A stretch of DNA of 38,618 nucleotides, from the sequence record DRR723986_4001; one strand, 5' to 3'. The notes below the pieces were generated by a model. The model searched no databases, had not been told where the DNA came from, and was given only the letters and a program-made list of their open reading frames with translations. This document shows, one piece after another, positions 5,291 to 29,941 of this stretch. Position numbers and translations under genes: made by a program. The stretch's first letter is position 1. Each line of letters begins with the position of its first letter.

Positions 5291-6343
5291 TCAGGTCAGC
5301 TCCAACGCATCCTTGTTAAAAGGCACCTCACGGCGGCTGCCGTCTTCACCGCACAGAACAAGATGTTCGTCTGCCAACTCGACCGAGCGAATGGCCGCGC
5401 CGGAGGGCCAGGCAACTGCGCCGATCACATGCGAGACCGACATGGCGCACTCATTGTGCAGCTTGAGGTCTCCCGGTCCGCTCAGCGAAAGGCCGTGATT
5501 GACGCCCAACATGTGCTGGGCTGCGCCCTCTTCGACGCCCAGACATCCCGTATGGCGCCCTGACCACGGCGGGTAATCACGACCGCCATTGGAATGCCAC
5601 AGCATCGTCATCGGCAATTGGTCCGCACGGCGCAGCGACAGGAACACATCCCCCTCGGTCGGCCGCGTGACGGCTGTCCAGCCCAAAGTATGGCCGGGAG
5701 CCTCAACCCCCGAAACAAAGTCCTCATGTCGGTCAAACCAAGGGTAACGGGTCAGATCAACCGTGCCTTCGCGGGCAGGAAACGCAGCCGGATCGGTGGC
5801 GGTCGCCGGATAGGACAGCCCGGACCGGCCTCTGGCGACATCGGGTTCGAGCGGCGATGGCGGGGTCACCCAAGCCTGTTTGGCCGAGGTGCGAATCAAC
5901 CCGCCATTGGGCAGCGAAACATTGGCATGGTTTGACACCGGCACCCGGCCAGAGCCGCCAATGAATGTGTGCCGCTGATAGACAAACGGCTGATCCGGGC
6001 ACAGCCACAACTCTTTGGTCAGGGTCGCGCCCTGAACCGGTTTGGTCAGGCGGGCAGACAAACGATCCGGCGATGCGTTTTGCAGATGCCAGCGGGCGTT
6101 GGGTGGCCAGCCATGAGGCGGCGCGCCGTCCTGTGCTTCGCCAAAGGGCGCACAGAAAAAATCGCCACCCAAATGATAAAGGTGTGGCGGCAATCCATCG
6201 GGCAGAACCTCGCCGGTCTTGTCCCAAGGGGCACGATGCAGCGGCGCGATTTCCCGCGCCCCGTTCATCACCGCAAAGCGGACGATCTGGCCCAAAGAGG
6301 GATCAAACGTCAGGCGAATACCGCGAGAGGCAAGCACAATCAT
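5291..6343 (-). CDS. Hypothetical protein, probable galactose-mutarotase/aldose-epimerase-like fold
   Basis: About 350-aa ORF directly after the PanB-like gene; motifs GDFFCAPFG, HGWPPN, SNHAN, LGVEEG. Start may instead be TTG 6366, overlapping the upstream stop. Confidence 0.65.
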   Translation of the reverse strand: MIVLASRGIRLTFDPSLGQIVRFAVMNGAREIAPLHRAPWDKTGEVLPDGLPPHLYHLGGDFFCAPFGEAQDGAPPHGWPPNARWHLQNASPDRLSARLTKPVQGATLTKELWLCPDQPFVYQRHTFIGGSGRVPVSNHANVSLPNGGLIRTSAKQAWVTPPSPLEPDVARGRSGLSYPATATDPAAFPAREGTVDLTRYPWFDRHEDFVSGVEAPGHTLGWTAVTRPTEGDVFLSLRRADQLPMTMLWHSNGGRDYPPWSGRHTGCLGVEEGAAQHMLGVNHGLSLSGPGDLKLHNECAMSVSHVIGAVAWPSGAAIRSVELADEHLVLCGEDGSRREVPFNKDALELT

Positions 6344-6362
6344 GTCGAAGCGCCAATGCCGC

Positions 6363-7166
6363 TCAAGACCGTGTCTCAAGTTGGTTGCGAAAGGCGTCCA
6401 ACTCATTTTCGGGCATCTTCACCAACTGCTCGTCCTGCGGAAAAGCGCCGGTTTCAACATCCGCGACAAACTCCTGAAACGCCGCGATCCGCTCATTTTG
6501 CAGGCGGTCATACTCGGCCTGAAAATCGCGGTAGACTTTGGCGTGGCGGGGAACGCGGCCTTCGGTATAGCCAAGGATGTCATTGGAAAAGAGGTATTGC
6601 GCATCGCAGCCCGCACCCGCCCCCATGGACCACACAAGGATGTTGACGCGTTTGGAAATCTCGGTCGCCACTTCTTCTGGCACCACTTCCAATTCTATCG
6701 CAATAGCCCCGGCGTTTTCATAGGCTTTCACCTCGTCGAAGAGGCGCAGTGCATCAGCGGCGGTTTTACCAACCGCGCGAAACCCACCCGTCCACGTGGC
6801 GCGGGCCGGTACCAGACCGACATGTCCGACAACGGGAATATACTCCCGCGCCAACATCTCGACCGTTTGCATCGAGCCAGAGCAATAAAGCGCATCCGCT
6901 CCGCGTTCCACTGCGTCATTGCACCAGCGCAGGTAATCCAGCGGCGTGCCGCATTGCGTGTGGGTTTGCCCGGTCATGGAAAATATCGACGGAGCAACCT
7001 CACGGTAACGCGGATCGAACAGAATTTCAGGCGGCACCGAGGCAATATCGACCCCGGCGGTTTCGGCGGCGGCGGCCTCTTCTATTGTGAAATACCGCAA
7101 CATGCTCAGTTGTTTTTTGCCTTTGAGCGCACGCAGATCGGCAACGGTGGGCAATTTGCGGCTCAC
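6363..7166 (-). CDS. Divergent 3-methyl-2-oxobutanoate hydroxymethyltransferase (PanB) family protein
   Basis: GHVGLVP, GAIAIELEVVP, GAGAGCDAQ...DILG and GAFP motifs of PanB present; N-terminal metal-binding motifs missing. Confidence 0.85.
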   Translation of the reverse strand: MSRKLPTVADLRALKGKKQLSMLRYFTIEEAAAAETAGVDIASVPPEILFDPRYREVAPSIFSMTGQTHTQCGTPLDYLRWCNDAVERGADALYCSGSMQTVEMLAREYIPVVGHVGLVPARATWTGGFRAVGKTAADALRLFDEVKAYENAGAIAIELEVVPEEVATEISKRVNILVWSMGAGAGCDAQYLFSNDILGYTEGRVPRHAKVYRDFQAEYDRLQNERIAAFQEFVADVETGAFPQDEQLVKMPENELDAFRNQLETRS

Positions 7167-7474
7167 GGTACGTTCACGAAAACCCGGTCGCCCTCTTTCT
7201 TGGTTTCATATGTGCTCAGATGCTCGCAAGCCGGAGCGCGCAGAGCCTTGCCGGTGCGATAATCAAAGATCCCGTTGTGGCGCGGGCATTCGATTTCGTG
7301 ATCCATGACCATCCCGTCAGACAGGTGGACATGTTCGTGTGTGCAAAGTCCGGCAGTGCAGAAAAATTCGTCATCGGGGCTGCGGATGATCACATAGGTT
7401 TTGTCATTATGGTCCCAGCGGATAACGTCTTCTTCTTCGACATCATCCGCGGCAATTGCGTCAATCCAGGGCAT
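7163..7474 (-). CDS. mocE: Rieske [2Fe-2S] ferredoxin, MocE-like
   Basis: CTHE...CPRH ligand motifs; 103 aa; adjacent to a mocD-like gene. Confidence 0.88.
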   Translation of the reverse strand: MPWIDAIAADDVEEEDVIRWDHNDKTYVIIRSPDDEFFCTAGLCTHEHVHLSDGMVMDHEIECPRHNGIFDYRTGKALRAPACEHLSTYETKKEGDRVFVNVP

Positions 7475-7503
7475 GTATTGCTCCGTTTGGTTAGGTGAGG
7501 GGA

Positions 7504-8640
7504 TTAGCCCGCATCGCTGCGGTCCGGCACATGTTTGTGCAGGAATTCGTTGTAGGGTTTTGCCGTTGGCGGCAGCATCTTGCGCACCGCATAGCTGGGA
7601 TCGCGTCGTTGCTTCATCACCGCGCCCATCATCTCTTTGTAGCCATCCCAGATTGAGGTGTTCGGCGCGGGCAGGTCATGTTTGATCTCATCATGCAACG
7701 CGGGCAGCGCATAATAGGGCACCATGGGAAACATGTGGTGTTCGATGTGATAGTTCATGTTCCAGTAGATCCAGCGGCTGATCGGATTCATATAAAGCGT
7801 GCGGGAATTCAGACGGTGGTCGGTCACGTCCTCGGGCAAACCGCCATGCTGCAACAGCCCGGTCATCACCATATGCCAACAACCATAGACACGCGGACCG
7901 CCAATCAGCAGGATCGGGATTGCAGATTTCCACCCCATCCCATTTGCCAGCATCAGCAGAACTGCCAAGCCCACCAGGGCAAAAAGAGAAAGATGCACAC
8001 GCGCCCAGAACACCGCCTTTGGCCATTCGGTTTCTGGGATGTAATTCCTTTCATCATCGGACAAAACGCCCCGTGCATTGCGCACCAACACCTTGAGTGA
8101 GGCCCAAGTATCGACAACGCCGACAAAGGCCAGCGCCTTGAAAAACAGGTTGACCGGATGCATCCAGGCTATCTCGGGATCGCGCCCAACGATAAGCGTA
8201 TCGGTGTGATGGCGGGCATGGCTCCAACGCCAGTTCACCGGGTTTCGGATGATCTGGAACGAGGCAATGTGATAGACCACATCGTTCATCCAGCGGGTGC
8301 GAAACGGGGTGCCGTGGCCACATTCATGCCAGCGGCTGTCGCAGGCCGAACCATAGATCACCCCATAGGCCAGCCAGAACGGCACTGCGATCCATGAGCC
8401 CCAGAAATAAATCCCTCCAGCCGCAAACAGAACATGGAGCGCGATCCAGATGGCTGTATCCCGCAAGGCCGGACCGTCACGCCGTTTCATCAACGCCTTC
8501 ATGGTCTTGCGGGGGACATCGCTGTGATACCACTCAGCCGCAGCAAGCCCGACCTCCTCGGCATGGCGGCTTGATGCGCCGGTCAGCGAATAGTCTCGGA
8601 CAGGAGAAATCTCGGAATGTGGCTGGGCTGCGTCGCTCAT
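7504..8640 (-). CDS. mocD: Fatty-acid-desaturase-family membrane di-iron oxygenase, MocD-like
   Basis: Three His boxes HECGH, HARHH, HIEHH; hydrophobic segments; followed by a Rieske ferredoxin. Confidence 0.85.
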   Translation of the reverse strand: MSDAAQPHSEISPVRDYSLTGASSRHAEEVGLAAAEWYHSDVPRKTMKALMKRRDGPALRDTAIWIALHVLFAAGGIYFWGSWIAVPFWLAYGVIYGSACDSRWHECGHGTPFRTRWMNDVVYHIASFQIIRNPVNWRWSHARHHTDTLIVGRDPEIAWMHPVNLFFKALAFVGVVDTWASLKVLVRNARGVLSDDERNYIPETEWPKAVFWARVHLSLFALVGLAVLLMLANGMGWKSAIPILLIGGPRVYGCWHMVMTGLLQHGGLPEDVTDHRLNSRTLYMNPISRWIYWNMNYHIEHHMFPMVPYYALPALHDEIKHDLPAPNTSIWDGYKEMMGAVMKQRRDPSYAVRKMLPPTAKPYNEFLHKHVPDRSDAG

Positions 8641-8714
8641 CGGCTCTCATCTGGTTGTCGTTTCTGGCGGCGCGCAATTGTCGATCCCGCTTTTGGTCCG
8701 CGCACTCTGACTTC

Positions 8715-8860
8715 GGGTTCGGTCCAATGTCTTGGGTTCGGTTGCAGCCCGCAAGGCGACAACACATCAGATCACATCAGACAGGCGTACGATCTGTGGT
8801 TTAACCTTCTGAAATTATGGCAACCGATATTTCGTTTGGCTTGGAAACAGACCGATGTGA
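8715..8860. repeat. Short direct and inverted repeats in the divergent mocD/SDR intergenic region
   Basis: GGGTTCGGT at 8715-8723 and 8734-8742; CACATCAGA at 8763-8771 and 8773-8781; near-inverted copy CCGATGTGA at 8852-8860. Confidence 0.4.
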
Positions 8861-9089
8861 GGTAATTTGATGGAATTGATCGGGACTATCCCTCCCTGCC
8901 CGGTCACTATCTGTACCAAGGATTTGATTCGATCTTTGGAGAGCGCCGGTGCCACGCAGAACAATCTGGGATATCGCCCAACGTGTTGTCATCCCAGCGG
9001 ACATTTTCACGGATCTTGCCCCCTGCCCTCACGGCGCAAATTTCTGACCCAATCGGGCAGCCATCTTTTCACACAGAACGGACCCCGCG

Positions 9090-9881
9090 ATGACACAAGA
9101 TCTCGAAAACATGGCTCTGGTCATCACCGGTGCAGCCAGCGGCATTGGCCGGGCGGTAGCAATCGAGGCGGCGGAACAAGGCGTGCGCCAGATACTCGCC
9201 ACAGATCTCAACGCAGAAGGTTTGGCGTCACTGAGCGATGCATTAAAGGGGCGGACCGAGGTGTCTTGCGTTGTGGCCAACCTTGCGGAGCCAGAGGCCG
9301 CGCAGCAGATAGCCGAGAGTGCGCGAACGGCGTTTGGCCGGATCGACGGGCTTGTCAATGCGGCGGGGATCACCAACCGTGCCAGCGTTGTCGATGGCAC
9401 AGCCGCAGATTTCGACACTATTTTCGCCGTCAATACCCGTGCGCCGTTCCTGCTGATGCAAGAGGCCATCAAAGATATGCAAAACCGCCAGGCAAGCGGT
9501 GTGATCGTCAACATCCAATCAATGAACGCCCATTGCGGCCCGCCCGAGTTGGCGCTCTATGCTGCCTCAAAAGGGGCGCTGCAAACATTGACCAAGAACG
9601 CAGCCAACGCGCATCTGCGCGACGGCATTCGCGTAAACGGCATCAATCTGGGCTGGGTGCGGACGGAGGCCGAGCACAATATGCAGGCCAATATTCTGGG
9701 CCATGGCGCAGACTGGGAGAAAGAAGCCGGGCGCAAACTGCCCCTTGGGCGGCTGGTGTCGTCCGAAGAAACGGCGCGGAGCACGTTGTTTCTGCTGTCA
9801 CCGGCATCGGCCCCGATGACTGGCGTGAATCTGGACTTTGAGCAATCCGTGACCGGCGCCCCGAATGCAGGCATCGGCTGA
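9090..9881 (+). CDS. Short-chain dehydrogenase/reductase (SDR)
   Basis: TGAASGIG, NAAG and YAASK motifs. Confidence 0.92.
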   Translation: MTQDLENMALVITGAASGIGRAVAIEAAEQGVRQILATDLNAEGLASLSDALKGRTEVSCVVANLAEPEAAQQIAESARTAFGRIDGLVNAAGITNRASVVDGTAADFDTIFAVNTRAPFLLMQEAIKDMQNRQASGVIVNIQSMNAHCGPPELALYAASKGALQTLTKNAANAHLRDGIRVNGINLGWVRTEAEHNMQANILGHGADWEKEAGRKLPLGRLVSSEETARSTLFLLSPASAPMTGVNLDFEQSVTGAPNAGIG

Positions 9882-9890
9882 CCGGCGGGT

Positions 9891-10916
9891 TCAAGTCCTC
9901 AGCGGCGCAGTGCTTTCGCGGACGATCAATTCGACCGGGATCGGCACTTCGGGCGTGCGTTCAAGGCTTTTGTTTTTCAACCGGTCCAAAAGCACCCGCG
10001 CAGCGCGGCGGCCCAATCCGTGGCGGTCTTGCCGGATCGTTGTCAGTGCCGGAATATAGTATTCGGACATTTCGATGTCGTCGAACCCGACGACAGATAT
10101 ATCTTCTGGCACCCGCAATCCGCCGCTCTTTAGCCCCGCCATCAGGCCAAAGGCCACCATGTCGGCCGAACAAAAGACAGCTGTGGGCCGGTCGTCCATG
10201 GCCAGAATGCGGGTTGCTGCGTCATGCCCCGATTCCAGTGAAAAATCACCCCGGATGATCCATTCAGGTTGCGCCGGCAAGCCAAGTCGGGCGCGTTCGG
10301 ATACCATGCCCTCCCGCCGGGCCGTGGTCAGAACATTGCCGTCCGGTCCTGTAATATGGGCGATCTTGCGATGCCCAAGATCATGTAGATGCCGAATGGC
10401 AAGCCGCGCCCCTTCGGCGTTGTCACTGGAAATGACGGGGAACTTTTGGCCTTCGACCCATTCACACAAAAAGACGATCCGGTCCTCGACCCCAAGATCG
10501 ACGCATTCCTGCAAAGCCGAGGCCCGCACTCCGCCATCCAGAGAAATCACACCATCAACACGACCATCCAAAAAGTATCCGGCAAGGGCGGAATCAACAA
10601 TCGGATCACTGTCCGTATCGGCGATCAGAACCGCATAGTCCGTGCCAGAGAATTCTTCGCTGATGCCTGCCAGAATACCCGAATAAAACGGCTTGCCGAG
10701 ATTGGGCACCAGAACAAGCACCGCATTTGCGCGTTGCAGACGCAGATTTCGTGCCGCCTGATTGACCCTGTATTCGGTGCTCTTGATCGCTTGGAGCACA
10801 GTTTCGCGGGTGGTGTCGCTGACCAGACTGGGGTTGGTCAAAACCCGGCTGACCGTCGCGGCTGACACCCCCGCTGCACGGGCCACATCCTGAATTGTTG
10901 CGGGTTTCTGAATCAT
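9891..10916 (-). CDS. LacI family transcriptional regulator
   Basis: HTH TIQDVARAAGVSAATVSRVL; C-terminal VPEDISVVGFDD...PALTTIRQ. Confidence 0.95.
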   Translation of the reverse strand: MIQKPATIQDVARAAGVSAATVSRVLTNPSLVSDTTRETVLQAIKSTEYRVNQAARNLRLQRANAVLVLVPNLGKPFYSGILAGISEEFSGTDYAVLIADTDSDPIVDSALAGYFLDGRVDGVISLDGGVRASALQECVDLGVEDRIVFLCEWVEGQKFPVISSDNAEGARLAIRHLHDLGHRKIAHITGPDGNVLTTARREGMVSERARLGLPAQPEWIIRGDFSLESGHDAATRILAMDDRPTAVFCSADMVAFGLMAGLKSGGLRVPEDISVVGFDDIEMSEYYIPALTTIRQDRHGLGRRAARVLLDRLKNKSLERTPEVPIPVELIVRESTAPLRT

Positions 10917-10946
10917 CTACGCGGGTCGCCATCTATCATTTTTCTG

Positions 10947-10976
10947 TTGACACGAATCTCTTGTCTTGCCGATTAT
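10947..10976 (+). promoter_or_regulatory. Sigma70-type promoter for the 11104-20701 operon
   Basis: Perfect TTGACA (10947-10952), 18-nt spacer, GATTAT (10971-10976). Confidence 0.6.
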
Positions 10977-10990
10977 GTAATCGATTTCAT
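10975..10990. promoter_or_regulatory. LacI-type operator O1
   Basis: ATGTAATCGATTTCAT, near-perfect palindrome with central CG, overlapping the -10 element. Confidence 0.8.
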
Positions 10991-11017
10991 GTTCTGAAAA
11001 GACTTAATTGGTCGAAA

Positions 11018-11031
11018 TGAAATCGATTTCA
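11018..11031. promoter_or_regulatory. LacI-type operator O2
   Basis: TGAAATCGATTTCA, perfect 14-bp palindrome; centre 42 bp from O1. Confidence 0.82.
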
Positions 11032-11062
11032 GGACGCATTCAGTGCGTTAGAGGGGGATGGC

Positions 11063-11107
11063 ATGAGACCGGCCAGAAACGGCAAGACAATGACTGTGAT
11101 GTCATGA
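11063..11107 (+). other. Possible 14-aa leader ORF (MRPARNGKTMTVMS)
   Basis: GAGGGGG SD at 11051-11057; its TGA overlaps the SDR start codon (ATGA). Confidence 0.3.
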
Positions 11108-11832
11108 GCGCAGCGGCGAAATTCGATTTTTCCGGCGCCCGGATCATCGTGATCGGCGCCAGCCGTGGCGGCATTGGCGCGGCCATTGCGCGGGCGTTTC
11201 AGGACGCGGGGGGCACGGTTGAGATCACCGGCGCAGAACCCGAATGCCTGCCCGAGGACGCGGCGCGGTTTCCATATACGCAGCTTGACGTGACCGACAC
11301 CGATGCCGTGGAGAGTTTTGCCAAAAGCCGGGGCGAATTGGATGTGCTGGTCAATTGCGCCGCCATCACCAAGCGCGGCGAAGAGATGGACCCAGAGTTC
11401 TTTCAACATGTGCTGAACGTGAACCTCGTCGGCTCCATGCGCTGCGCCAAGGCGCTGCAGGGGGCGCTTGCCAAACGGCAGGGGCGCGTCATCAATATTG
11501 CGTCGATGTATGCCCGCTTTGGCTCACCCCAGAACCCTGCTTATGGCGCATCCAAAGCCGGGGTTGAGCAGATGACAAAATCGCTGGCCATCGCTTGGGC
11601 GCCCGATGGTATCCGCGTCAACGCCATCGCGCCGGGTTTCATTGTCACCGCACAATCAGCCCGCGCAAGGCAAGATCCGGCGTTTACCGATGCCATCGAG
11701 GCCCGCACCCCGCTGGGCCGCTGGGGGCAGCCGGACGACATCGCCGGGTTGGCGCTGTTTCTGGGGTCTGATGCGTCCCAGTTCATGACCGGGGTCTGTG
11801 TGCCCGTGGATGGAGGATATTCTGTTGTCTGA
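11104..11832 (+). CDS. Short-chain dehydrogenase/reductase (SDR)
   Basis: GASRGGIG, NCAA, YGASK, RVNAIAPG and VDGG motifs; the longer ORF call would start inside the operators. Confidence 0.9.
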   Translation: MSAAAKFDFSGARIIVIGASRGGIGAAIARAFQDAGGTVEITGAEPECLPEDAARFPYTQLDVTDTDAVESFAKSRGELDVLVNCAAITKRGEEMDPEFFQHVLNVNLVGSMRCAKALQGALAKRQGRVINIASMYARFGSPQNPAYGASKAGVEQMTKSLAIAWAPDGIRVNAIAPGFIVTAQSARARQDPAFTDAIEARTPLGRWGQPDDIAGLALFLGSDASQFMTGVCVPVDGGYSVV

Positions 11833-11843
11833 GGAGACCCACC

Positions 11844-12998
11844 TTGTCTGATGTTTCGCAAATCAATGCGGCGGTCATTGGGACCGGATTCATTGGCACT
11901 GTGCATGTGCAGGCGCTGCGCCGTCTTGGCGTGCGGATTGCCGGTGTGTTGGGATCATCGCCGGAACGCGGCGCTGCACGCGCGGCTGAGATCGGCGTTG
12001 GCCATGCCTATGCCTCGCTTGATGATCTGTTGGCGGATGATGTGGTGGATGTGGTGCATGTCACTTCGCCCAATCATGCGCATTACCCGCAAGTAAAGGC
12101 GATTATCAGCGCTGGAAAACACGTCGTTTGTGAAAAACCCTTGGCCATGACAAGCGCCCAATCGGCAGAGATGGCAGTGCTGGCCAAGGCATCAGGCAAG
12201 ATTTGCGCGGTCTGCTACAACATCCGGTTTTATCCCCTGAACCAACAGGCGCAAGGGATGGTGAAAGCCGGGGAATTGGGTGATTTGCGTTTCGTTACAG
12301 GGCATTATCATCAGGATTGGCTGGCCAAAGCGACCGACTGGAACTGGCGGCTGCAATCCGAGGAGGGCGGCGCCCTGCGTTCGGTGGGTGATATCGGCAC
12401 GCATTGGGTGGATTTGACCAGCTTTATCATGGGCCTGAAAGCCAAATCTGTGTTTGCCGACCTCAGCACATTCCTGCCCGAGCGGCAGCGGCCAACAGGA
12501 CCGGTTGAAACATTCTCAAGCGCCGAGGGCACAACTGAACCGGTGGCGATCGACACCGATGATGCAGCCGCGATCATGATCCGCTATGAAAACGGCGCAA
12601 GGGGTGTGATGACCACCTCGCAGATCAACATTGGCCGCAAGAATTCACTGCAATGGGACATCGCCGGCAGCATGGCCAGTGCCGCATGGGACAGTGAAAC
12701 GCCTGATCATCTGTTTATCGGGCATCGCGATGCCCCGAACCAAACGTTGATGCGCGACTTCACTTTGATGAACGAAACCGGCACCCGCGCGGCATCCCTG
12801 CCGCCCGGCCATGTCGAAGGGTTTGCAGACAGCTTCTTTGCCTTCTTCGGTGCGGTTTACGCCGATGTCGCTGCGGGCAGCCGTGGAGATCACAGCACCT
12901 GGGCCACGTTTGATGACGGCCATTATGAAATGAAATTCTGCGATGCCGTGCTGAAATCAGCGCAAGAGGCGCGCTGGGTCAATCTGGACGAGATTTGA
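11844..12998 (+). CDS. Gfo/Idh/MocA family oxidoreductase
   Basis: GAGGAG RBS with TTG start; GTGFIG, CEKP, DIGTHW motifs. Confidence 0.92.
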   Translation: MSDVSQINAAVIGTGFIGTVHVQALRRLGVRIAGVLGSSPERGAARAAEIGVGHAYASLDDLLADDVVDVVHVTSPNHAHYPQVKAIISAGKHVVCEKPLAMTSAQSAEMAVLAKASGKICAVCYNIRFYPLNQQAQGMVKAGELGDLRFVTGHYHQDWLAKATDWNWRLQSEEGGALRSVGDIGTHWVDLTSFIMGLKAKSVFADLSTFLPERQRPTGPVETFSSAEGTTEPVAIDTDDAAAIMIRYENGARGVMTTSQINIGRKNSLQWDIAGSMASAAWDSETPDHLFIGHRDAPNQTLMRDFTLMNETGTRAASLPPGHVEGFADSFFAFFGAVYADVAAGSRGDHSTWATFDDGHYEMKFCDAVLKSAQEARWVNLDEI

Positions 12999-13008
12999 GG
13001 GGAGCGAC

Positions 13009-13923
13009 ATGAAACTTGGAATTCTAAGTGTGCCATTTGAAGACCAAAGTCTGATGGAGGTCGCCGATTGGGCAAGCGCAAACGGCTTTTCGGCGATGGA
13101 GATCGCCTGCTGGCCACAATCAAGCGGTGACAGGCGGCGTTATGCCGGAACTTGTCATATCAACGTGGATGGTTTGACCGCGGCGCAGGGCAAGGACATC
13201 AAGGACGGGCTGGAGGCCAAGGGGATCGAGATTTCCGGCCTTGGGTTTTACCCAAACCCACTCCACGCCGATGCGGCGCACCGCGATGATGTGATCGGCC
13301 ATCTGACCAAGGTGATCAAAGCGGCGGGCGCTATGGGCGTGCCGGTGGTCAACACCTTTGTGGGTGGAGATCGGACGTTGAACGTCGATGAAAACTGGAC
13401 CCGTGCGCAAGCGATTTTTGCACCTATCGTGGCGCAGGCCAAGGATGCAGGCGTCAAGCTTTGCTTTGAAAACTGCCCGATGATCTTTTCCAACGACGAA
13501 TGGCCCGGCGGTCACAACATCGCCTATTCGCCCAAGATCTGGCGCCGCATTTTTGAGGAATGGGGCGACGATGTGGGCATGAATTTCGACCCATCACATC
13601 TGATCTGGCAATTCATTGATCAGACCCGCTTTATCAAAGAGTTTGGCCCCCAGATTGGCCATGTGCACGCCAAAGACCTGATGATTGATCACGATGGTCT
13701 TTACGAAAATGGTATCATGTCAGCAGGCATGGGCTGGCAAGTGCCGCGCCTTTGCGGGCTGGGGGATGTCAATTGGTCGGATTTCTTTTCCGGTCTCTAC
13801 CGGGCTGGCTATGACGGCCCGGTCATTATCGAGCATGAAGACAGGCTGTTCGAAGGCACGGACGAAAAGGTCAAGCGCGGCTTCCTACTGGCGCGCGACG
13901 TGCTGCAACCGTTCATCAAGTAA
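13009..13923 (+). CDS. Sugar phosphate isomerase/epimerase (xylose-isomerase-like TIM barrel, AP_endonuc_2)
   Basis: Metal-ligand pattern FEN, NFDPSH, HVHAKD, IEHED; GGGGAG RBS. Confidence 0.9.
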   Translation: MKLGILSVPFEDQSLMEVADWASANGFSAMEIACWPQSSGDRRRYAGTCHINVDGLTAAQGKDIKDGLEAKGIEISGLGFYPNPLHADAAHRDDVIGHLTKVIKAAGAMGVPVVNTFVGGDRTLNVDENWTRAQAIFAPIVAQAKDAGVKLCFENCPMIFSNDEWPGGHNIAYSPKIWRRIFEEWGDDVGMNFDPSHLIWQFIDQTRFIKEFGPQIGHVHAKDLMIDHDGLYENGIMSAGMGWQVPRLCGLGDVNWSDFFSGLYRAGYDGPVIIEHEDRLFEGTDEKVKRGFLLARDVLQPFIK

Positions 13924-13979
13924 TTGGGCGCAAAAGCCCGACAATCACCACACGTAATCTTCATTTGGGAGGAAATAAC

Positions 13980-15008
13980 ATGAAGAAACTACTCACAAGC
14001 GCGGCGGCTCTTGCAATCGCGGCCACCATGGCCCCGGCGGCATTCGCGGCGGATTATTCCATCGGCATATCCAACACCGTGCAAGGCAACGGCTGGCGCG
14101 AACAGATGATCTGCGCGATGCGGGCGCAGGCGCTGGTCGAAGAGGATGTGTCCAACCTGATCGTGGCACACCGCAACACCGATTCCGCAGGTCAGCTGGA
14201 AGATCTCAACAACCTGATCGAGGCGGGCGTTGATGCCATCGTTCTCAACCCTTCAAACCCCGATGCATTGAACTCTGCGCTGGAAATGGCGATGGAAAAG
14301 GGCATCGTTGTGGTCGCGGTTGACGCGGGTGTGTCGGCGGAAGGTGCCTACATCCTGTCCAACAACCAGGAAGAATATGCCTATCTGGGCGCAAAGTGGC
14401 TGTTTGAACAGGTCGGCGGCAAGGGCGACATTGTCTATATGCGCGGCATTGCCGGCGTGTCGGCAGACAGCGACCGTGACAATGGCTTCAAGCGGGCTTT
14501 GGAAGAGTTTCCGGGCATCAACATCGTCCACGAAGTGTTCACCGGCTGGCAGCAGGACCAGGGCAAACAACAGATGTTTGACTATCTGGCAACGGGCATT
14601 CCGTTTGATGGTGTCTGGACGTCGGGGATCGACAACGTAATCGTTGATGCCTTTGTAGAATCCGGCGCACCGCTGGTGCCGATCGTTGGCGCCGACAACG
14701 CGGGCTTTGTTCAGTATCTGACCGAAGTGGATGGTCTGACCGGCGCGGCCGTGACCAACCCCGGATCGGTTGGCGGTGCAGGCGTTGCGCTTGCTGTCGA
14801 TATTCTCAATGGCAAAGCACCGGGCGAGAAAACCGTGCTGGTTGATCCGGTTCTGTGGGAAAACGCCACTGATGGCGGACGCGCGACCATCACCGCGGCG
14901 CAGAACCCGAACCTCGATCCTGAATGGCCCGTGTCCGTCACTGTGCCGGGCTGGACCGATTACACGATGGATCAGATCATCGCCTGCAAAGGCCCAGGCG
15001 ACAGCTGA
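13980..15008 (+). CDS. Sugar ABC transporter substrate-binding protein (CUT2, ribose-binding-like)
   Basis: GGGAGG RBS; signal peptide MKKLLTSAAALAIAATMAPAAFA; GVDAIVLNP motif. Confidence 0.92.
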   Translation: MKKLLTSAAALAIAATMAPAAFAADYSIGISNTVQGNGWREQMICAMRAQALVEEDVSNLIVAHRNTDSAGQLEDLNNLIEAGVDAIVLNPSNPDALNSALEMAMEKGIVVVAVDAGVSAEGAYILSNNQEEYAYLGAKWLFEQVGGKGDIVYMRGIAGVSADSDRDNGFKRALEEFPGINIVHEVFTGWQQDQGKQQMFDYLATGIPFDGVWTSGIDNVIVDAFVESGAPLVPIVGADNAGFVQYLTEVDGLTGAAVTNPGSVGGAGVALAVDILNGKAPGEKTVLVDPVLWENATDGGRATITAAQNPNLDPEWPVSVTVPGWTDYTMDQIIACKGPGDS

Positions 15009-15022
15009 TCAACACCCGGAAC

Positions 15023-15050
15023 GCCCCCGCCCGACCTGTCGGGCGGGGGC
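15023..15050 (+). terminator. GC-rich stem-loop after the SBP gene (mRNA stabiliser or partial terminator)
   Basis: GCCCCCGCCCGAC-CT-GTCGGGCGGGGGC, perfect 13-bp inverted repeat; no U tract. Confidence 0.7.
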
Positions 15051-15079
15051 ACCCATTCGAGAAAAGAACACGCATTCCC

Positions 15080-16564
15080 ATGAACGCAAATCAGATCCTA
15101 GATGCCAGCGGCATCGCCAAAAGCTTTGGCGCTGTCAAAGCGCTCGTTGATGCCAGCCTCAGTGTCTCGGAGGGCGAGATTGTCGCGCTGATGGGTGCCA
15201 ACGGCGCAGGCAAATCGACATTTGTGAAAATTATAACCGGGGCGCTGAACCCGGACAGCGGCAAGGTGCTCATTCGCGGCAAGCAAGCCCGAGTTGGAAG
15301 CCCGGCCGAAGCCCGTCGTTCCGGCCTTGTGCCGGTCTATCAAGAACCCTCGTTGATCCCCGATCTGGACGTTGCCGACAATCTGCGGCTGACCGATACA
15401 CCCGTCGCCCCGTTTGAGCGTTGGGTCAAGGAATTGGGCATCGAGGGGCTGGCCCTGTCAGACATGGTGGGCGATCTGCCATTGGCCACTTTGCGCATTC
15501 TCGATCTGGCCCGCGCACTGGCAAGCGAGCCGGATGTGCTGTTGCTGGATGAAATGACTGCCGCATTGCCATCGGATCTGGTTGAGCGTGTGCTGAAAGT
15601 GACGCGGCAACAGGCGGACAAGGGCATGGGGGTGATCTATGTCTCGCACCGCTTTAACGAAATTTCCGAATTGTGTGACCGCGCCACAGTGCTGCGCGAC
15701 GGCCAAACCGTCGGCGATCTGGTCATTGAGCCGGGCGTCGAGGATCGCGCCGTTGAATTGATGCTGGGGCAACGGCTTGATCTTGCCGCCCGCGAGGTCG
15801 ACAAAACGCGCGGCACCATCGGTGACACCCCGCGCGTGCGGGTCAAGGGCGTGGCGATTGCGCCGAAGGTCACTGATATCTCTTTTGACATGTACCCCGG
15901 CGAAGTGCTCGGCGTGGTTGCCCTGGAAGGTCAGGGGCAAGACGAATTGTTTGAATGTCTGGCGGGCTTCATGCCGCCCACGGCAGGCAGCATCGACGTA
16001 AACGGCACCACCACGGCCTTTCGTCACCCCGCAGATGCGATTGCGGCCGGGGTCAAATTTGTGCCCGGCGACCGGGCGGACGCGTTGCTGGCGCAGCGGT
16101 CTGTGCGCGAGAATATCGCGTTGCCCTTTTCGGCACGGATGTCGTCCTGGGGGTGGCTCAAAATGCGCCATGAACGCGAGCGGGTGGCACATGCCATCGA
16201 CCGCTTGCAGATCGACACGCGGGCGCAGGGTGAAGTGCAGCGGCTATCCGGTGGCAATCAGCAAAAGGTCACCATCGGGCGTTGGCTGGCAACCGGCGTT
16301 GAGACGCTTTTGCTGTTTGACCCAACCCGCGGCATTGATGTGCGCACCAAGCGCCAGATCTATCCACTGGTGCGCGAACTGGCCGAACAGGGCTCATCGG
16401 TTCTGTTCTACACCTCGGAACTGGAAGAGATACCCTTGGCCTGCGACCGCGCCGTGGTGATCTTTAATGGCCGCGTTGTCGATATCATCGACGCAGAGAA
16501 TGCGGACGAACAAACGCTGCTGCGTGCGGCTTATGGATTGACGGCACAAGAGGGCGCGGCGTGA
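15080..16564 (+). CDS. Sugar ABC transporter ATP-binding protein (two-domain, RbsA-like)
   Basis: [29 protein letters not shown] motifs. Confidence 0.93.
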   Translation: MNANQILDASGIAKSFGAVKALVDASLSVSEGEIVALMGANGAGKSTFVKIITGALNPDSGKVLIRGKQARVGSPAEARRSGLVPVYQEPSLIPDLDVADNLRLTDTPVAPFERWVKELGIEGLALSDMVGDLPLATLRILDLARALASEPDVLLLDEMTAALPSDLVERVLKVTRQQADKGMGVIYVSHRFNEISELCDRATVLRDGQTVGDLVIEPGVEDRAVELMLGQRLDLAAREVDKTRGTIGDTPRVRVKGVAIAPKVTDISFDMYPGEVLGVVALEGQGQDELFECLAGFMPPTAGSIDVNGTTTAFRHPADAIAAGVKFVPGDRADALLAQRSVRENIALPFSARMSSWGWLKMRHERERVAHAIDRLQIDTRAQGEVQRLSGGNQQKVTIGRWLATGVETLLLFDPTRGIDVRTKRQIYPLVRELAEQGSSVLFYTSELEEIPLACDRAVVIFNGRVVDIIDAENADEQTLLRAAYGLTAQEGAA

Positions 16565-17499
16565 GCGATATTATCAAAAAGAATGCATGGGTGGCCGGGC
16601 TTTTGGCCCTGCTCATCGTGCTGTTGGTTCTGACCAAGATCATCCAACCGTCGTTCGGCATGTCCGGCCTCGAAAGCGTGGCCCGTGCCGCCCTGCCCTT
16701 TGCCTTTGCCACTGCGGGCATGGCGGTGGTGGTCATTGTCGGCGGCATCGACCTTTCGGTTGCCTCAATGATGGCGGTTTGCGCGGTCACAGCCGCCGTT
16801 CTGATGGAAAGAATGGCAGGCGTGCCCGCCATCCTGATCGTGCTGGGGTTGGGATTTGTCATGGGGTTGGTCAATGGCGGGCTGATCGTGCTGACGCGCG
16901 TGCCTGACATTGTGGTGACCCTGGCGATGCTCTTTGTCTGGGAGGGCGTTGCCCTGCTCATTCTGGAATCCCCCGGCGGCGCGACAACCGAATGGCTCAA
17001 GCAAAGCATTCGCGGCAGTGTGATCCCCTTTGTGCCAAATGCGCTGGCGATCATCGCCGCCTGTGTGGCACTCGTCTGGATCCCGCTGCGCCGCTCGAAA
17101 CTGGGCATTTCCATCTACGCCACCGGCTCGGACGAGCTGGCCGCGTTCCGCTCTGGCGTGGCGGTTGGACGCACCAAGATCGTTGCTTATGGCGTCTGCG
17201 GCATGTTCTGCGCCTTTGGCGGGCTCAGCCTCGCCTCGCTCACCGGGATCGGAGAGCCGGTGCCGGGGCCGTATCTGATGGCATCGGTCGCAGCCGTTGT
17301 TCTGGGCGGTGTGGTTCTGGGCGGAGGTCGCGGAGGATTGCTTGGCCCGATCATTGCGGTCTTTATCTTGCGGATTGTGCGGACGATCCTGACACTTCTG
17401 GCTGTTGACCCAAATGTCACCACCATCATCGAAGGCACCATCATGGTGGGTGTGGTGATGTTGGGCACAGCCGCAACTTTGCGGGGGGCCAGAAAATGA
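16561..17499 (+). CDS. Sugar ABC transporter permease (RbsC-like)
   Basis: GTGA overlap; GGIDLSV and AAVVLGG motifs. Confidence 0.92.
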   Translation: MSDIIKKNAWVAGLLALLIVLLVLTKIIQPSFGMSGLESVARAALPFAFATAGMAVVVIVGGIDLSVASMMAVCAVTAAVLMERMAGVPAILIVLGLGFVMGLVNGGLIVLTRVPDIVVTLAMLFVWEGVALLILESPGGATTEWLKQSIRGSVIPFVPNALAIIAACVALVWIPLRRSKLGISIYATGSDELAAFRSGVAVGRTKIVAYGVCGMFCAFGGLSLASLTGIGEPVPGPYLMASVAAVVLGGVVLGGGRGGLLGPIIAVFILRIVRTILTLLAVDPNVTTIIEGTIMVGVVMLGTAATLRGARK

Positions 17500-18503
17500 A
17501 CATGGCAACGACCGATTCATCAATGGTCCGCTTTGGCCGCTTTCTGCGCGACAATCCGGTTATTCCGCTTTTGGCCTTTCTGGTTCTGATGATCGCGGTT
17601 CTCGAAGTCATTCGCCCCGGCATCGTGACACCGTTTCGCGCCGGACGTGATGGGCTGATCTCGACCTTCTGGGTTGGCAACCTGATCAAATTCGCGATCC
17701 CGCTTGCGATGCTGGCCGCCTGTCAGGTTTTGACCATGCTGACTGCCGGGATCGACCTGTCAGCCGGTATTGTCGCAACCGTTGCTGCCTTTGTCTGTGC
17801 CACCCTATCGTCGATCTGGGGGCCGATCCCTGCGGTGCTGATTGCGATGTCGATGGGGCTTGTGGTTGGCGTGGTCAACGGTATCGGGGTTGGCGTGGTG
17901 CGGGTGCACCCGCTGATCATGACGCTGGGCACCGGGCTGATCGCAACTGGGTGTATGCAAGTCTATCAGCGCCTTGTGATCAACGCCGGATCCGAAATCC
18001 CTGCCGCGCTGTCATGGCTTGGCACGGGCCGCACGCTGTCTATGCCAAACGGGCTGTTTCTGTTCGTGCCATTTGCGCTCTTTGTCTTTTGGCTTATGCG
18101 GTTTACCGGCTTTGGCCGCTTGCTTTTTGCGCTTGGCTCGAACGAAAACGCGGCCAAGCTGTCCGGGGTGCGGTCATGGCAGGTCTATGTGGCGCTTTAT
18201 GCGCTTTCGGGCCTGATCGCCGCGCTGGCCGGTCTGCTGTATCTCGGGATGATCCGCCAAACCTCGCTCAGCCTTGCGACGCCCTTGCTGCTGCCGTCCG
18301 TGGCGGCGGCGGTGATCGGCGGCACGTCAATCTTTGGCGGGCGCGGCAGCTTTGCCGGAGCGATTGTCGGCGCGTTGATCATCCGGGTTCTGGATACAAT
18401 GCTGACCCTGATGCAAATGCCCGAAGGCGCCCGCACAATGTTGTTCGGGCTGATCATTCTTACCGTGACTGCCATTTATGTGCGCATCACGGGCAGCCGA
18501 TAG
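17496..18503 (+). CDS. Sugar ABC transporter permease (RbsC-like)
   Basis: AGIDLS, GSNENAAKLSGV, AAAVIGGTSIFGGRG motifs. Confidence 0.92.
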   Translation: MNMATTDSSMVRFGRFLRDNPVIPLLAFLVLMIAVLEVIRPGIVTPFRAGRDGLISTFWVGNLIKFAIPLAMLAACQVLTMLTAGIDLSAGIVATVAAFVCATLSSIWGPIPAVLIAMSMGLVVGVVNGIGVGVVRVHPLIMTLGTGLIATGCMQVYQRLVINAGSEIPAALSWLGTGRTLSMPNGLFLFVPFALFVFWLMRFTGFGRLLFALGSNENAAKLSGVRSWQVYVALYALSGLIAALAGLLYLGMIRQTSLSLATPLLLPSVAAAVIGGTSIFGGRGSFAGAIVGALIIRVLDTMLTLMQMPEGARTMLFGLIILTVTAIYVRITGSR

Positions 18504-18515
18504 GAGGACATCCAC

Positions 18516-19592
18516 ATGACCAAATTTCGCGTCGTTGGAATAAGCTTTGACCACATGCATATGGGCGATCTGCTGCGGATGGTGCATGAGCACCCCGAAG
18601 CGGAAATCGCAGGGATCTACGATCCTGATCGCGCCAAGATGCAGGCGGCGATTGATGCGTTTGACCTGCCCGAAGATCGCGTCTTTACCGATTTTGACGC
18701 CTGCATGGCGGCTGGCCCCTATGACATGGCGTTGCTGTGCGTTGCCACCGCGCAACATGCCGAGATGACCGAACGGTTGGCGCCGCATGGATGTCATGTC
18801 CTTGTTGAGAAGCCCTTTGCGGCCTCGGCAGATGATGCCCGGCGGATGATTTCGGCAATGCAAGGCACCGGCAAGCAAATGCTGATCAACTGGCCGCTGC
18901 GCTGGGTCGAAAGCCATGTGACCGCCAAACGGCTGATTGACGAGGGGCTTATTGGAGAGCTGCGCGAGGTGCATTTTTATGACGGCAATCGCGGCCCGCT
19001 TTATCACCTTGCAGACAAGGTCGAGGTCAGCCCCGAAGAGGTCGAGCGTCAGAAGCCGGACTCCTGGTGGTACAAAAAGGCATCGGGCGGCGGCGCTTTG
19101 CTGGATTATATGGGTTACGGCGCAACTCTTGGCACGTGGTACATGGACGGCGAAGCGCCCTTGGAAGTGACCTGCACAGTAGATGAGGTCGCCGGGATCG
19201 AGGTGGATCAACACGCCATTGCGGTGTGCCGCTACGCCCGTGGCCTTTCCAAGATGGAGACCCGTTGGGGCACGTTCACCGACCCTTGGGCGATCCAGCC
19301 GCAACCGACCTGCGGCTTTGTCTTTGTTGGCAGTGACGGGACCATATCGTCGCCCGACTATGCCAGCCATGTGACCGTGCAAACACGGGCCCGCCCCGAG
19401 CAGCATCAGATTGCCGCCGATCCCCTGCCCGCAGGCGAGAGCAACGTGATCGAATACGCCGTCAGCCACCTTAAGCGGGGCGCCGCCATCGACGGCCCGC
19501 TGGCCCCCGATCTGTGCCTGACCGCGCAACGCATCGTCGACACGGCCATGCAATCGGCCGTTGAAAAACGGACATTGAGCCTGCTGCCATGA
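18516..19592 (+). CDS. Gfo/Idh/MocA family oxidoreductase
   Basis: AGGAGG RBS; VEKP, GGGALLDYMGY; atypical N-terminal GISFDHMH in place of GxGxxG. Confidence 0.88.
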   Translation: MTKFRVVGISFDHMHMGDLLRMVHEHPEAEIAGIYDPDRAKMQAAIDAFDLPEDRVFTDFDACMAAGPYDMALLCVATAQHAEMTERLAPHGCHVLVEKPFAASADDARRMISAMQGTGKQMLINWPLRWVESHVTAKRLIDEGLIGELREVHFYDGNRGPLYHLADKVEVSPEEVERQKPDSWWYKKASGGGALLDYMGYGATLGTWYMDGEAPLEVTCTVDEVAGIEVDQHAIAVCRYARGLSKMETRWGTFTDPWAIQPQPTCGFVFVGSDGTISSPDYASHVTVQTRARPEQHQIAADPLPAGESNVIEYAVSHLKRGAAIDGPLAPDLCLTAQRIVDTAMQSAVEKRTLSLLP

Positions 19593-20701
19593 GTGAAGAT
19601 TCCGCCGACAGCGATACCTATGCCCTGAAATCCGGGGCCCTGCCCGAAATTGCCCCACCGGAGGTGGACTACCTGCCGCCCGCGCCTAAAACCTATCGCC
19701 CAAAGATCGGGATGATCGGCACCGGCGGTATCTCGAACAGCCACCTTGATGCCTATCGCACAGCCGGCTGGGAGGTTGCAGGCCTGTAGAACCGCAGCCG
19801 CGACAAGGCCGAGGCCAAGGCGGCTGAGTTCTGCCCCGCTGCGCAGATCTTTGACGATGTAGAGGCCCTTCTGGATCGCGATGACATCGACGTTCTCGAC
19901 ATCACCCTGCCGACCGAGGTCCGCGCCCCGGTGATCGAAGCGGCGTTGAAGGCGGGCAAACATGTGCTTAGTCAAAAGCCGTTTGTCTCCGATCTTGATA
20001 CCGGCGAGGCGCTGGTCAAGCTCGCCGAAGACCAAGGCGTGCAATTGGCGGTCAACCAAAACGGCCGCTGGTCGCCGCATATGGCATGGATGCGCAATGC
20101 CTGCCGGAACGGTCTGATTGGCGATGTCATATCCGTGCACGCCTCTTTGCATTGGAACCACGGCTGGACCGCTGGCACACCGTTCGACAAGATCGAAGAC
20201 CTGATCCTTTACGATTTTGGCATCCATTGGTTCGATTTTCTGTCCTCCATCGCCCTGGATCGCGCCGAGAGTGTGACCGCCTCAGCCGCCCATGCCCGCG
20301 GACAGGCCAATGCCACCCCATTGCTGGCACAGGCATTGATCAAAATGGACGGCGGTCAAGCCAGCCTTGTTTTTGATGGCGGCACGCCGCATGGCCCCCG
20401 AGATACCACTTACATCGGTGGAACCGAGGGCAGTATCGTGGCCAATGGCCCCGATCTTGGCAGCCAGTCCGTGACCCTGACCACGGACGCCGGGATCGCC
20501 CACCCCAAGCTGCGCGGCACTTGGTTCAACGACGGGTTTCAAGGCGCGATGGGCGCGCTGCTCTGTGCCATCGAGGACGGCCGCGCGCCCGTCAATTCCG
20601 CGCGCGACAACCTGACCTCCCTGGCTCTGACTTTCGCCGCCATTGCATCGCGAAAGTCCGGGCAAGAGGTTCCGGTTGGCGAGGTGCGCCGCCTGCCTTA
20701 G
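19589..20701 (+). pseudogene. Gfo/Idh/MocA oxidoreductase interrupted by an in-frame TAG at 19787-19789
   Basis: The 66-aa ORF (GTGGIS) and 256-aa ORF (SQKP, DFGIHW) share one frame; readthrough gives ...EVAGL*NRSRDKAEAKAAEF..., 370 codons in total. Confidence 0.88.
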
Positions 20702-22218: not shown

Positions 22219-22230
22219 GGTTTGCTCTCC

Positions 22231-23148
22231 TCATTTGCCCCAGCGCAAGGCGATGAGGTCATGCTCACTTGCCAGTTGCAGCAATCGGGCTTTGGTTCTT
22301 TGGGACATAGGCTTTAGCGGGTGGCGCACGTGGTCCGATCCAATGACGCCCCCCGCCATCATGACGGTTTTGGCCGCGCGCAACCCACATTGGCGGTTCT
22401 CGTGGTTGATCAACGGCAAACACAGTTTCCATTGCTCCAATGCACCATCCAAATCGCCCGCTAGATACCGGGTGACGATGGGCCGGATCAGTTCCGGTTG
22501 CAGTGCGGAGGTCATGGTGCCTTTTGCGCCTGCGTCCAGATCGGCCAATAGTGTGACGGCCTCTTCGCCATCAAAAGGCCCGACGATGTGATCACCGCCC
22601 GCGTCGATCAAAGCGGCGAGTTTGTCCGCAGCGAAGGGCGTTTCCATTTTGAAATAGCTGACATTCTCAATCTCGCGGGCCATTTTCACCAATGTTGGCA
22701 CTGTCAGGGTGACGCCCGACAGTGGTGCATCCTGCACCATGATCGGGATGTTGGCAGCCTCGGAAACCGCTTGAAAATGTTCAAAAACCCCTACTTCGGA
22801 TGGAACAAGTCCGACACCATGATAGGGCGGCATCATCATGATCATCGATGCGCCCATGGCCTCAGCTTCAACCGCGCGTGCCACCGCGATCTGCGTGGAA
22901 AAGTGACTGGTGGTAACAATCATCGGCACACGACCCGCCACATGTTCGAGGCTCACACGGGTTAGTCTGGCGCGTTCTTCGTCAGACAGGACAAATTGTT
23001 CGGAATAGTTCGCCAGAATACAGATGGCATCGACCCCTTGGTCAATCATGCAATCCAATACCCGGCGCATTCCGTCTTCATCTACGGTGCCATCAGACTG
23101 AAAAGGCGTTGGCGCAACGGGCAGGATGCCTGTTAGTGGATTTTGCAT
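22231..23148 (-). CDS. L-2-keto-3-deoxyarabonate dehydratase (DHDPS family)
   Basis: ILANYSEQF, MPPYHG, QDAP, YFKME, DGEEA, LPLINHENRQ, matching the Azospirillum-type L-KDA dehydratase as I recall it. Confidence 0.88.
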   Translation of the reverse strand: MQNPLTGILPVAPTPFQSDGTVDEDGMRRVLDCMIDQGVDAICILANYSEQFVLSDEERARLTRVSLEHVAGRVPMIVTTSHFSTQIAVARAVEAEAMGASMIMMMPPYHGVGLVPSEVGVFEHFQAVSEAANIPIMVQDAPLSGVTLTVPTLVKMAREIENVSYFKMETPFAADKLAALIDAGGDHIVGPFDGEEAVTLLADLDAGAKGTMTSALQPELIRPIVTRYLAGDLDGALEQWKLCLPLINHENRQCGLRAAKTVMMAGGVIGSDHVRHPLKPMSQRTKARLLQLASEHDLIALRWGK

Positions 23149-23235
23149 CGCGGTTCTCCTTGATTACCGGGGCGGTCGTTCGGTGTTGAGCATGGCCAAG
23201 AGCCATCGCGCAGCAAAACGGCCATCTGCAGGGGC

Positions 23236-25907: not shown

Positions 25908-25908
25908 C

Positions 25909-27138: not shown

Positions 27139-27149
27139 GTCCCTGTCTC

Positions 27150-28673: not shown

Positions 28674-28694
28674 CCCGCCCACATGAATATCAGA

Positions 28695-28720: not shown

Positions 28721-28736
28721 CCAGGGAGAATTCCGG

Positions 28737-29930: not shown

Positions 29931-29941
29931 ATTGGTGACTT

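Follow-up and report, generated by a model that had tools for sequence, protein, structure and literature searches.

A conserved operon pairing a MocD-like oxygenase with a PanB-derived protein, and its possible role in the demethylation of an imported sugar-like compound

We analyzed a stretch of DNA of 38,618 nucleotides from sequence record DRR723986_4001 (the window) and, within it, an operon that combines a MocD-like oxygenase and a Rieske ferredoxin with a protein derived from PanB and a protein with a predicted mutarotase fold. An earlier interpretation made from the letters alone, referred to here as the sequence-only reading, had proposed this combination, and all four genes were found, at 8640-5291 on the minus strand. 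Every gene named in that reading was present, at or near its position. The locus recurs in the nearest genome, G001, where its proteins are 93-99% identical. The genes of the operon are as follows.

7504-8640, minus strand: MocD-like membrane di-iron (His-box) oxygenase, 378 aa; PF00487 FA_desaturase, three His boxes
7163-7474, minus strand: MocE-family Rieske [2Fe-2S] ferredoxin, 103 aa; TIGR02377 above the cut-off
6363-7166, minus strand: PanB-like (PanB-derived) TIM-barrel protein, 267 aa, GTG start; partial PF02548 match
5291-6343, minus strand: mutarotase-fold protein of an unnamed family, 350 aa; fold predicted, no Pfam or NCBIfam match

The four genes form one operon, in which a GTGA stop/start overlap joins the MocE and PanB-like genes and the remaining gaps measure 29 and 19 nucleotides. 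The MocD-like protein scored 118 bits against PF00487 (cut-off, 29.7). Its histidine boxes, HECGH, HARHH and HIEHH, are present in the window translation and invariant in 14 homologues; domain and three histidine boxes together are the features by which the FA_desaturase superfamily is recognized. The ferredoxin scored 149.2 bits against TIGR02377 (cut-off, 136.15) and contains CTHEH and CPRHN, which supply the CxH...CxxH cluster ligands. The window cluster contains no ferredoxin reductase (MocF), and a reductase gene lay within 4 kb of the PanB-like gene in only 3 of the best 80 loci described below. A MocF-like reductase (42-46% identity; 42% in G001) was found once per genome, unlinked, in all five genomes with this locus type. 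Prediction of a complex between MocD and the PanB-like protein gave a score of 0.00, which is evidence neither way.

Homologues of the PanB-like protein are labeled 3-methyl-2-oxobutanoate hydroxymethyltransferase in public sources. Its match to PF02548 covered only profile positions 106-258 of 259; the canonical PanBs of relatives gave about 350 bits over positions 1-258. Scores of 103.5 bits against TIGR00222 (cut-off, 207.55) and 128.8 bits against NF001452 (cut-off, 272) came from about residues 97-248 only. The C-terminal half aligned with PanB at an E value of about 1e-23, and the C-terminal 150 residues alone matched the models, the N-terminal half being recognized by no Pfam or NCBIfam model. 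When 22 PanB-like sequences were aligned with 3 canonical PanBs from related genomes, the family was found to have SVP, FSMTG and YCSGS in place of the canonical motifs GDS, VDMPF and VKLEGG, with a deletion of about 25 residues. In Escherichia coli PanB, the canonical motifs (GDS, D-x-PF and K-x-EGG) provide the ligands of Mg2+ and the Lys that binds the substrate (D45, D84, K112 and E114). The motifs GHVGL and GGF[KR] and the general-base Glu motif E-x-E-VVP were kept, and the new residues S43, D91, Y94, C95 and S98 were invariant within the family. According to the accessible text of two studies, enolization of the keto acid by PanB requires the metal (PMC7770189, PMC13488298). The structural model of the PanB-like protein (pLDDT 86) showed a complete eight-stranded barrel. 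Its top 28 Foldseek matches were all PanB structures (TM 0.66-0.80; nearest, 0.75-0.80), and those ranking after them included 2-methylisocitrate lyases and aldolases. In a FastTree phylogeny, the PanB-like family formed one clade on a long branch apart from canonical PanB.

The distribution of pantothenate genes was examined in the five genomes. G001, G068 and G130 have the PanB-like gene, and neither panC nor a canonical panB was found in them; G092 and G119 have the PanB-like gene plus a canonical panB adjoining panC. Thus, panC was present in two of the five genomes with a PanB-like gene. Moreover, 13 of the 19 genomes of the genus gave no PF02548 match at all. Because panC and canonical panB were not found in three nearly complete genomes and PF02548 matches were absent from these 13, widespread pantothenate auxotrophy is suggested for this Rhodobacteraceae group. 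Compared with PanB (EC 2.1.2.11; PDB 1m3u, 1oy0 and 3vav), the PanB-like protein has the same TIM-barrel fold, C-terminal half, and His and general-base Glu motifs, but it differs in its N-terminal half, the replaced motifs, the deletion of about 25 residues, its separate clade, its independence of panC and its linkage to an oxygenase. Given the scores below the cut-offs, the replaced motifs, the separate clade and the independence of panC, sequence comparison indicates that the protein is not a ketopantoate hydroxymethyltransferase and that the database label is wrong for the family.

We then examined how far the gene pairing is conserved. A search of 151 genomes of the family Rhodobacteraceae at an E value of 1e-60 or less found the PanB-like protein in 28, some with two or three paralogous copies. 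In 20 Rhodobacteraceae loci around the best matches, MocD and/or MocE adjoined the PanB-like gene in 18, the exceptions being L026 and L040. In a scan of species-representative genomes, 585 relatives were confirmed, and the 80 best loci among them were analyzed (69 non-actinobacterial and 11 actinobacterial, overlapping in part with the 20 loci above). Among the 69 non-actinobacterial loci, MocD was present within 4 kb in 61 and a detectable MocE in 39, with one or the other in 64; for the 52 of these loci that are flanked on each side by 4 kb or more, the number with MocD or MocE was 50. Since MocD recurs in 61 of 69 loci, the pairing is far beyond chance, and the conserved mocD/mocE/PanB-like/mutarotase-like module that the sequence-only reading had envisaged was borne out. 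Up to three paralogous modules occur per genome, each with its own transporter. In a Mesorhizobium locus (L139; G183:C47, 7369-10465), a LacI gene, the PanB-like gene, an FA_hydroxylase gene (PF04116, a sterol-desaturase-type di-iron enzyme), a MocE gene and a TIM-barrel gene follow one another in that order. Because the PF04116 enzyme replaces MocD there, the PanB-like protein goes with a di-iron hydroxylase plus a Rieske ferredoxin in general.

Relatives of the module are frequent on rhizobial plasmids: the PanB-like and MocD-like proteins matched 279 and 275 plasmid records, respectively, mostly from Rhizobium and Sinorhizobium. The operon on Sinorhizobium meliloti pSymB and on Rhizobium johnstonii 3841 pRL11 encodes LacI, MocD, MocE, a ferredoxin-reductase-type flavin adenine dinucleotide (FAD) protein and the PanB-like protein. 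In Rhizobium sp. K102, the order is LacI, MocD, MocE, PanB-like, substrate-binding protein (SBP), permease, ATPase and a 348-aa protein of the window mutarotase-fold family. None of these minimal operons (K102, pSymB and pRL11) encodes a dehydrogenase, and they fit a one-step conversion into an ordinary metabolite. Together with the moc-type layout, they suggest that a small blocking group is taken off a ring compound after import. The SBP of the window had no match in the plasmid collection at an E value of 1e-40. A full-text literature search on the R. johnstonii 3841 operon by guessed locus tags (pRL110619-24) returned no paper.

In the tree, the actinobacterial PanB-like copies (loci L090, L103, L108, L109, L111, L112, L116, L119, L121, L130 and L133) formed a single clade nested among the alphaproteobacterial ones; this nesting suggests that the gene has been transferred between phyla. 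No partner of the PanB-like gene was conserved across the actinobacterial contexts. The neighbors included, in L116, a P450, an esterase and two Gfo genes; those in L090, L103 and L109 included an esterase, a flavin mononucleotide (FMN) reductase, an SDR, an RPE65-type oxygenase and a molybdopterin oxidoreductase; and L108, L112 and L119 had an acyl-CoA synthetase gene.

For the last gene of the operon, the start at ATG 6343 was preferred over 6406. Its product had 2556 homologues, nearly all named "hypothetical." An AlphaFold model built on 25 homologues (pLDDT 87) had as its top Foldseek matches the aldose 1-epimerases/mutarotases 3nre, 2hta, 3k25 and 1lur (TMt 0.60-0.65, probability 1.00), with 9-14% sequence identity to the matched structures, and the nearest Atlas clusters were named galactose mutarotase or DUF4432. 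The protein is therefore predicted to have the galactose-mutarotase fold. A mutarotase-fold gene occurred in 32 of the 69 non-actinobacterial loci, belonging to the window family in 17 and to DUF4432 in 15. BLASTP detected no relation between the window family and the DUF4432 proteins of other modules, only the fold class being common to them.

On either side of the operon lie the following genes and sites.

3397-5286, plus strand, convergent with the operon: bifunctional 5-dehydro-2-deoxygluconokinase/aldolase (IolC-IolJ type); PfkB and DUF2090, NF047869 685 bits (cut-off, 600)
9090-9881, plus strand: SDR oxidoreductase 1; PF13561 and PF00106, NF004847 301 bits (cut-off, 240)
9891-10916, minus strand: LacI-family repressor; PF00356 and Peripla_BP_3
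10975-10990 and 11017-11032: two LacI-type palindromes, before the SDR2 operon
11008-11832, plus strand: SDR oxidoreductase 2; PF13561 199.9 bits, match from residue 51
11844-12998, plus strand: Gfo/Idh/MocA dehydrogenase 1 (Gfo1), by Pfam
13009-13923, plus strand: xylose-isomerase-like TIM-barrel enzyme; PF01261 114 bits
13965-18503, plus strand: whole CUT2 ABC importer; Peripla_BP_4, two ABC_tran domains, two BPD_transp_2 proteins
13965-15008, plus strand: CUT2 SBP; Peripla_BP_4
14924-16564 (open reading frame), plus strand: CUT2 double-domain ATPase; two ABC_tran domains
16561-17499 and 17496-18503, plus strand: two CUT2 permeases; BPD_transp_2
18516-19592, plus strand: Gfo/Idh/MocA dehydrogenase 2, by Pfam
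19589-20701, plus strand: Gfo/Idh/MocA dehydrogenase 3 (Gfo3), start ATG 19589; in-frame TAG at 19787-19789

The two SDRs, the LacI repressor, the three Gfo genes, the TIM-barrel gene and the CUT2 importer named in the sequence-only reading are thus all present, except that the third Gfo gene is interrupted by the TAG. In G001, the counterpart of this codon is TGG (Trp) and the frame is intact, and the TAG may be a strain nonsense mutation or a sequencing error. The true start of SDR2 is probably further downstream than 11008. SDR1 adjoins the module in other genera too, and the same operon is accompanied by a LacI orthologue (70-77% identity) in L055, L058, L060, L077, L083 and L102. The window SBP has counterparts in other genera that are 69-91% identical. 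Co-occurrence of the two operons, which had been set beforehand as a test, was also observed: the Gfo1-TIM-CUT2 operon lay within 10 kb in 16 of the 69 loci, in many genera. In L076, genes for DUF4432, MocD, PanB-like, SDR, SDR, Gfo, TIM, SBP, ATPase and permeases all lie on one strand, in this order.

The adjacent gene that had been read as iolC is there, as a bifunctional kinase/aldolase gene rather than a plain iolC. Its membership in this pathway is uncertain; among other genera, only L118 has IolC/J adjoining the module. In the corresponding locus of G001 (L053; G001:C13), the IolC/J gene comes after the ATPase gene of a CUT1 transporter that ends at window position 3170, and the CUT1 cluster there, which is of the amino-sugar type and extends upstream of the point where the window starts, encodes an SBP, permeases, a SIS/MurQ-like protein, GntR, a SIS protein and an NagA-like amidohydrolase. 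Downstream of Gfo3, a separate cluster at 20704-30859 encodes an aldehyde dehydrogenase, a DHDPS-family protein, a Gfo dehydrogenase, an IlvD/Edd-family dehydratase, a second CUT2 importer and a LysR regulator; going by the family names, it presumably resembles a non-phosphorylative (Weimberg-type) pentose oxidation pathway. At 30921-35319 on the minus strand lie genes for an alpha/beta-hydrolase-like protein, a TauD-family dioxygenase and an FAD-binding oxidase.

A search of both strands for the LacI-type palindrome gave 5 matches, against 0.33 expected by chance. In one metatranscriptome, short contigs covered mocE/mocD and the SDR2, TIM-barrel and SBP genes; such contigs cannot show transcription, and a library of this kind possibly contains DNA. 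DNA nearly identical to the locus was present in metagenomes from marine biofilm, plastisphere, aquaculture, algae and protists, and eight runs from five studies contained at least half of the words sampled from the locus.

The substrate was approached through the binding protein, the dehydrogenases and the inositol genes. The nearest named relatives of Gfo1 were levoglucosan dehydrogenase (160.9 bits against a cut-off of 650) and structures of scyllo-inositol and L-glucose dehydrogenases, far below the cut-offs. Among solved SBPs, the window SBP matched distant CUT2 proteins only (best, about 96 bits) and the K102-type SBP matched one structure chain at 62 bits, neither giving a usable ligand assignment; against the rhizopine SBP model, the window SBP scored 15.8 bits (cut-off, 420). 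The TIM-barrel protein matched the IolE model weakly (29 bits; cut-off, 290). IolD was above the cut-off in two of the five genomes with the locus type, and IolB matches were obtained in two of the five; neither was found in G001 (99% complete), G068 or G130. The cyclitol option put forward in the sequence-only reading is weakened because IolD and IolB were not found in these three genomes. The adjacency of IolC, considered as proof of an inositol substrate, was rejected since among other genera it is kept only in L118. Thermotoga reportedly has an IolD-independent inositol route made up of dehydrogenases and TIM-barrel enzymes. Because of such a route, and because IolC/J adjoins the module both in the window and in L118, a cyclitol is still a possible substrate. 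The predicted mutarotase fold, for its part, suggests an aldose.

From the observed gene content, linkage, motif changes and folds, we infer the substrate class, the folate dependence and each of the chemical steps that follow. The locus may import and degrade a methylated sugar or sugar-like compound by oxidative O-demethylation, with the PanB-derived protein passing the one-carbon (C1) unit to tetrahydrofolate, a reading to which we give about even chances. MocE would be reduced by a reductase encoded elsewhere in the genome and would then supply electrons to the MocD-like enzyme, which would hydroxylate the O-methyl group of the imported compound. The resulting hemiacetal would collapse into a free hydroxyl compound and a C1 unit at the level of formaldehyde. 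The PanB-derived protein would hand this unit to tetrahydrofolate, no free formaldehyde being released, and the half of the PanB site that it has kept would be the part not devoted to the keto acid. The PanB-derived protein might then be a folate-specific formaldehyde-activating enzyme, a further novel reading that is compatible with O-demethylation. The mutarotase-fold protein and the Gfo, SDR and TIM-barrel enzymes would then process the demethylated ring compound.

Several points weigh against this O-demethylation reading. We infer folate binding by the PanB-like protein from homology only, and a hemiacetal decomposes by itself, so that a dedicated enzyme is not chemically required. The role of MocDEF in rhizopine O-demethylation is reportedly itself a genetic model (Bahar et al., 1998). 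Full-text searches of the literature found no assay of a MocD-type enzyme on sugars, no measured activity of the PanB-like family and no mention of a PanB-like partner. No palindrome of the LacI type was found in 8641-9089, upstream of mocD. The PanB-like genes of the 11 actinobacterial loci, which are contigs of metagenome-assembled genomes, encode proteins 61-64% identical to that of the window and lie in unrelated contexts without MocD or MocE nearby; three alphaproteobacterial copies (L026/L065, L072 and L040) stand alone, and MocD occurs without the PanB-like gene in L138 and L052. That the PanB-like gene occurs without MocD/E is the main reason why another explanation, possible though on the whole unlikely, keeps its weight. 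In that case, the oxygenase would carry out a non-demethylating oxidation (hydroxylation or desaturation) of a ring compound, and the PanB-derived barrel would be a folate-independent lyase, isomerase or hydratase, reactions typical of the wider PEP-mutase/isocitrate-lyase-like barrel superfamily. The actinobacterial and stand-alone copies, which work without MocD/E, would be accounted for, and the remodeling of the metal/keto-acid site to five invariant residues suggests a new substrate over mere loss; the lyases and aldolases that follow PanB among the fold matches agree with it as well. However, the nearest relatives by both sequence and fold are all PanB, the conserved half is the one shared with PanB, and the moc-type layout and minimal operons suggest that a small blocking group is taken off, and speak against a longer pathway.

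The sequence-only reading had put forward, as the bolder of its options, a C-demethylation route, which we consider improbable. In this route, MocD/E would hydroxylate a C-methyl branch, carried by a sugar or a cyclitol, to a stable hydroxymethyl group, and the PanB-derived enzyme would transfer the branch to tetrahydrofolate in a retro-aldol reaction, the neighboring carbonyl that this needs coming from a Gfo/SDR dehydrogenase or from the open-chain aldehyde of a 2-C-branched aldose. Both membrane di-iron families seen here hydroxylate unactivated methyl groups, the module has dehydrogenase genes next to it in the window as well as in 16 of the 69 loci, and a mutarotase-fold partner could supply an open-chain aldose. 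The general-base Glu and His motifs are kept, and if the intermediate were stable the PanB-like protein would be indispensable, in line with the tight linkage. To judge from the accessible text of PMC7770189, the cleavage would be PanB's own chemistry reversed. However, the residues that hold Mg2+ and the alpha-keto acid in PanB, the carbanion-forming part, are all replaced, and the minimal operons have no dehydrogenase, which leaves this specific route unsupported. Up to three paralogous modules per genome fit O-methyl sugars, said to be many, better than the few C-methyl ones. It is hardly credible, finally, that the PanB-like gene is the organism's own pantothenate-pathway panB. The public names of the homologues and the lack of a canonical panB in the nearest genome speak for it; this housekeeping role was rejected because the protein does not reach the NCBIfam panB cut-off, no longer has the metal-site motifs and is encoded within a catabolic operon, and because it is independent of panC, which was not found in three of the five genomes while the other two also have a canonical panB-panC pair. 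The absence of PF02548 matches from 13 of the 19 genus genomes argues in the same direction.

The O-demethylation reading can be compared with systems already described. The rhizopine system of S. meliloti L5-30 and Rhizobium leguminosarum (MocD/E/F with MocA/B/C) is alike in its His-box oxygenase and MocE-family Rieske ferredoxin, and MocA (Gfo), MocC (TIM barrel) and MocB (sugar-type SBP) each have a neighbor of their own family in the window. It differs in its regulator, MocR there and LacI here, and a MocF-type reductase, encoded in the operon of the rhizobial relatives of the module, is missing from the window cluster; the window operon adds the PanB-derived and mutarotase-fold genes. In the one genome with a rhizopine-type SBP above the cut-off, that gene is the last on its contig side, at the end, and the 10 kb available there contain no MocD. 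MocDEF are required for rhizopine catabolism according to the available text of PMC10107442, in which "panB" and "hydroxymethyltransferase" have 0 occurrences. In marine Bacteroidota, a CYP236A-type P450 with its ferredoxin and reductase demethylates 6-O-methyl-D-galactose and, by inference, does the same job, the oxidative conversion of a sugar O-methyl group into formaldehyde in marine bacteria associated with algae (available texts of PMC6292453, PMC9400963 and PMC10033563). As these texts have it, that system frees formaldehyde, which is detoxified by separate pathways, whereas here a PanB-derived gene travels with the oxygenase. The P450 is a soluble haem enzyme, unrelated in family to the membrane di-iron enzyme of the window. 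Marine folate-coupled N-demethylases such as the trimethylamine N-oxide (TMAO) demethylase Tdm act on N-methyl compounds, unlike the sugar reading proposed here, and their C1-handling part is a GcvT-like domain, which is another fold. They nevertheless provide a precedent for demethylation coupled to the capture or channeling of formaldehyde (accessible part of PMC13619132). A study of pinitol sought bacterial demethylases and, in its available text, none was required (PMC9788770). Across the texts covered by the literature search, the P450 system of Bacteroidota was the only sugar demethylase found, and there was no description of the module, a point on which the sequence-only reading is supported. 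What the module adds to the MocDEF-type oxygenase systems is a PanB-derived partner, so far undescribed.

Methylated sugars block ordinary sugar enzymes, and they make up a notable share of the polysaccharides of algae and plants as well as of the dissolved organic matter of the sea. The module would be an alphaproteobacterial counterpart of the P450 demethylase; it occurs in roseobacters and also in rhizobia, for example on S. meliloti pSymB and R. johnstonii pRL11. The label of a vitamin B5 enzyme on its PanB-derived partner distorts predictions of the pantothenate pathway. If C-demethylation were true, it would be a route for the removal of carbon branches not known in carbohydrate catabolism. 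If the PanB-derived protein gives the methyl carbon to folate, sugar demethylation would be tied to one-carbon energy metabolism, and the protein would represent a novel type of folate enzyme.

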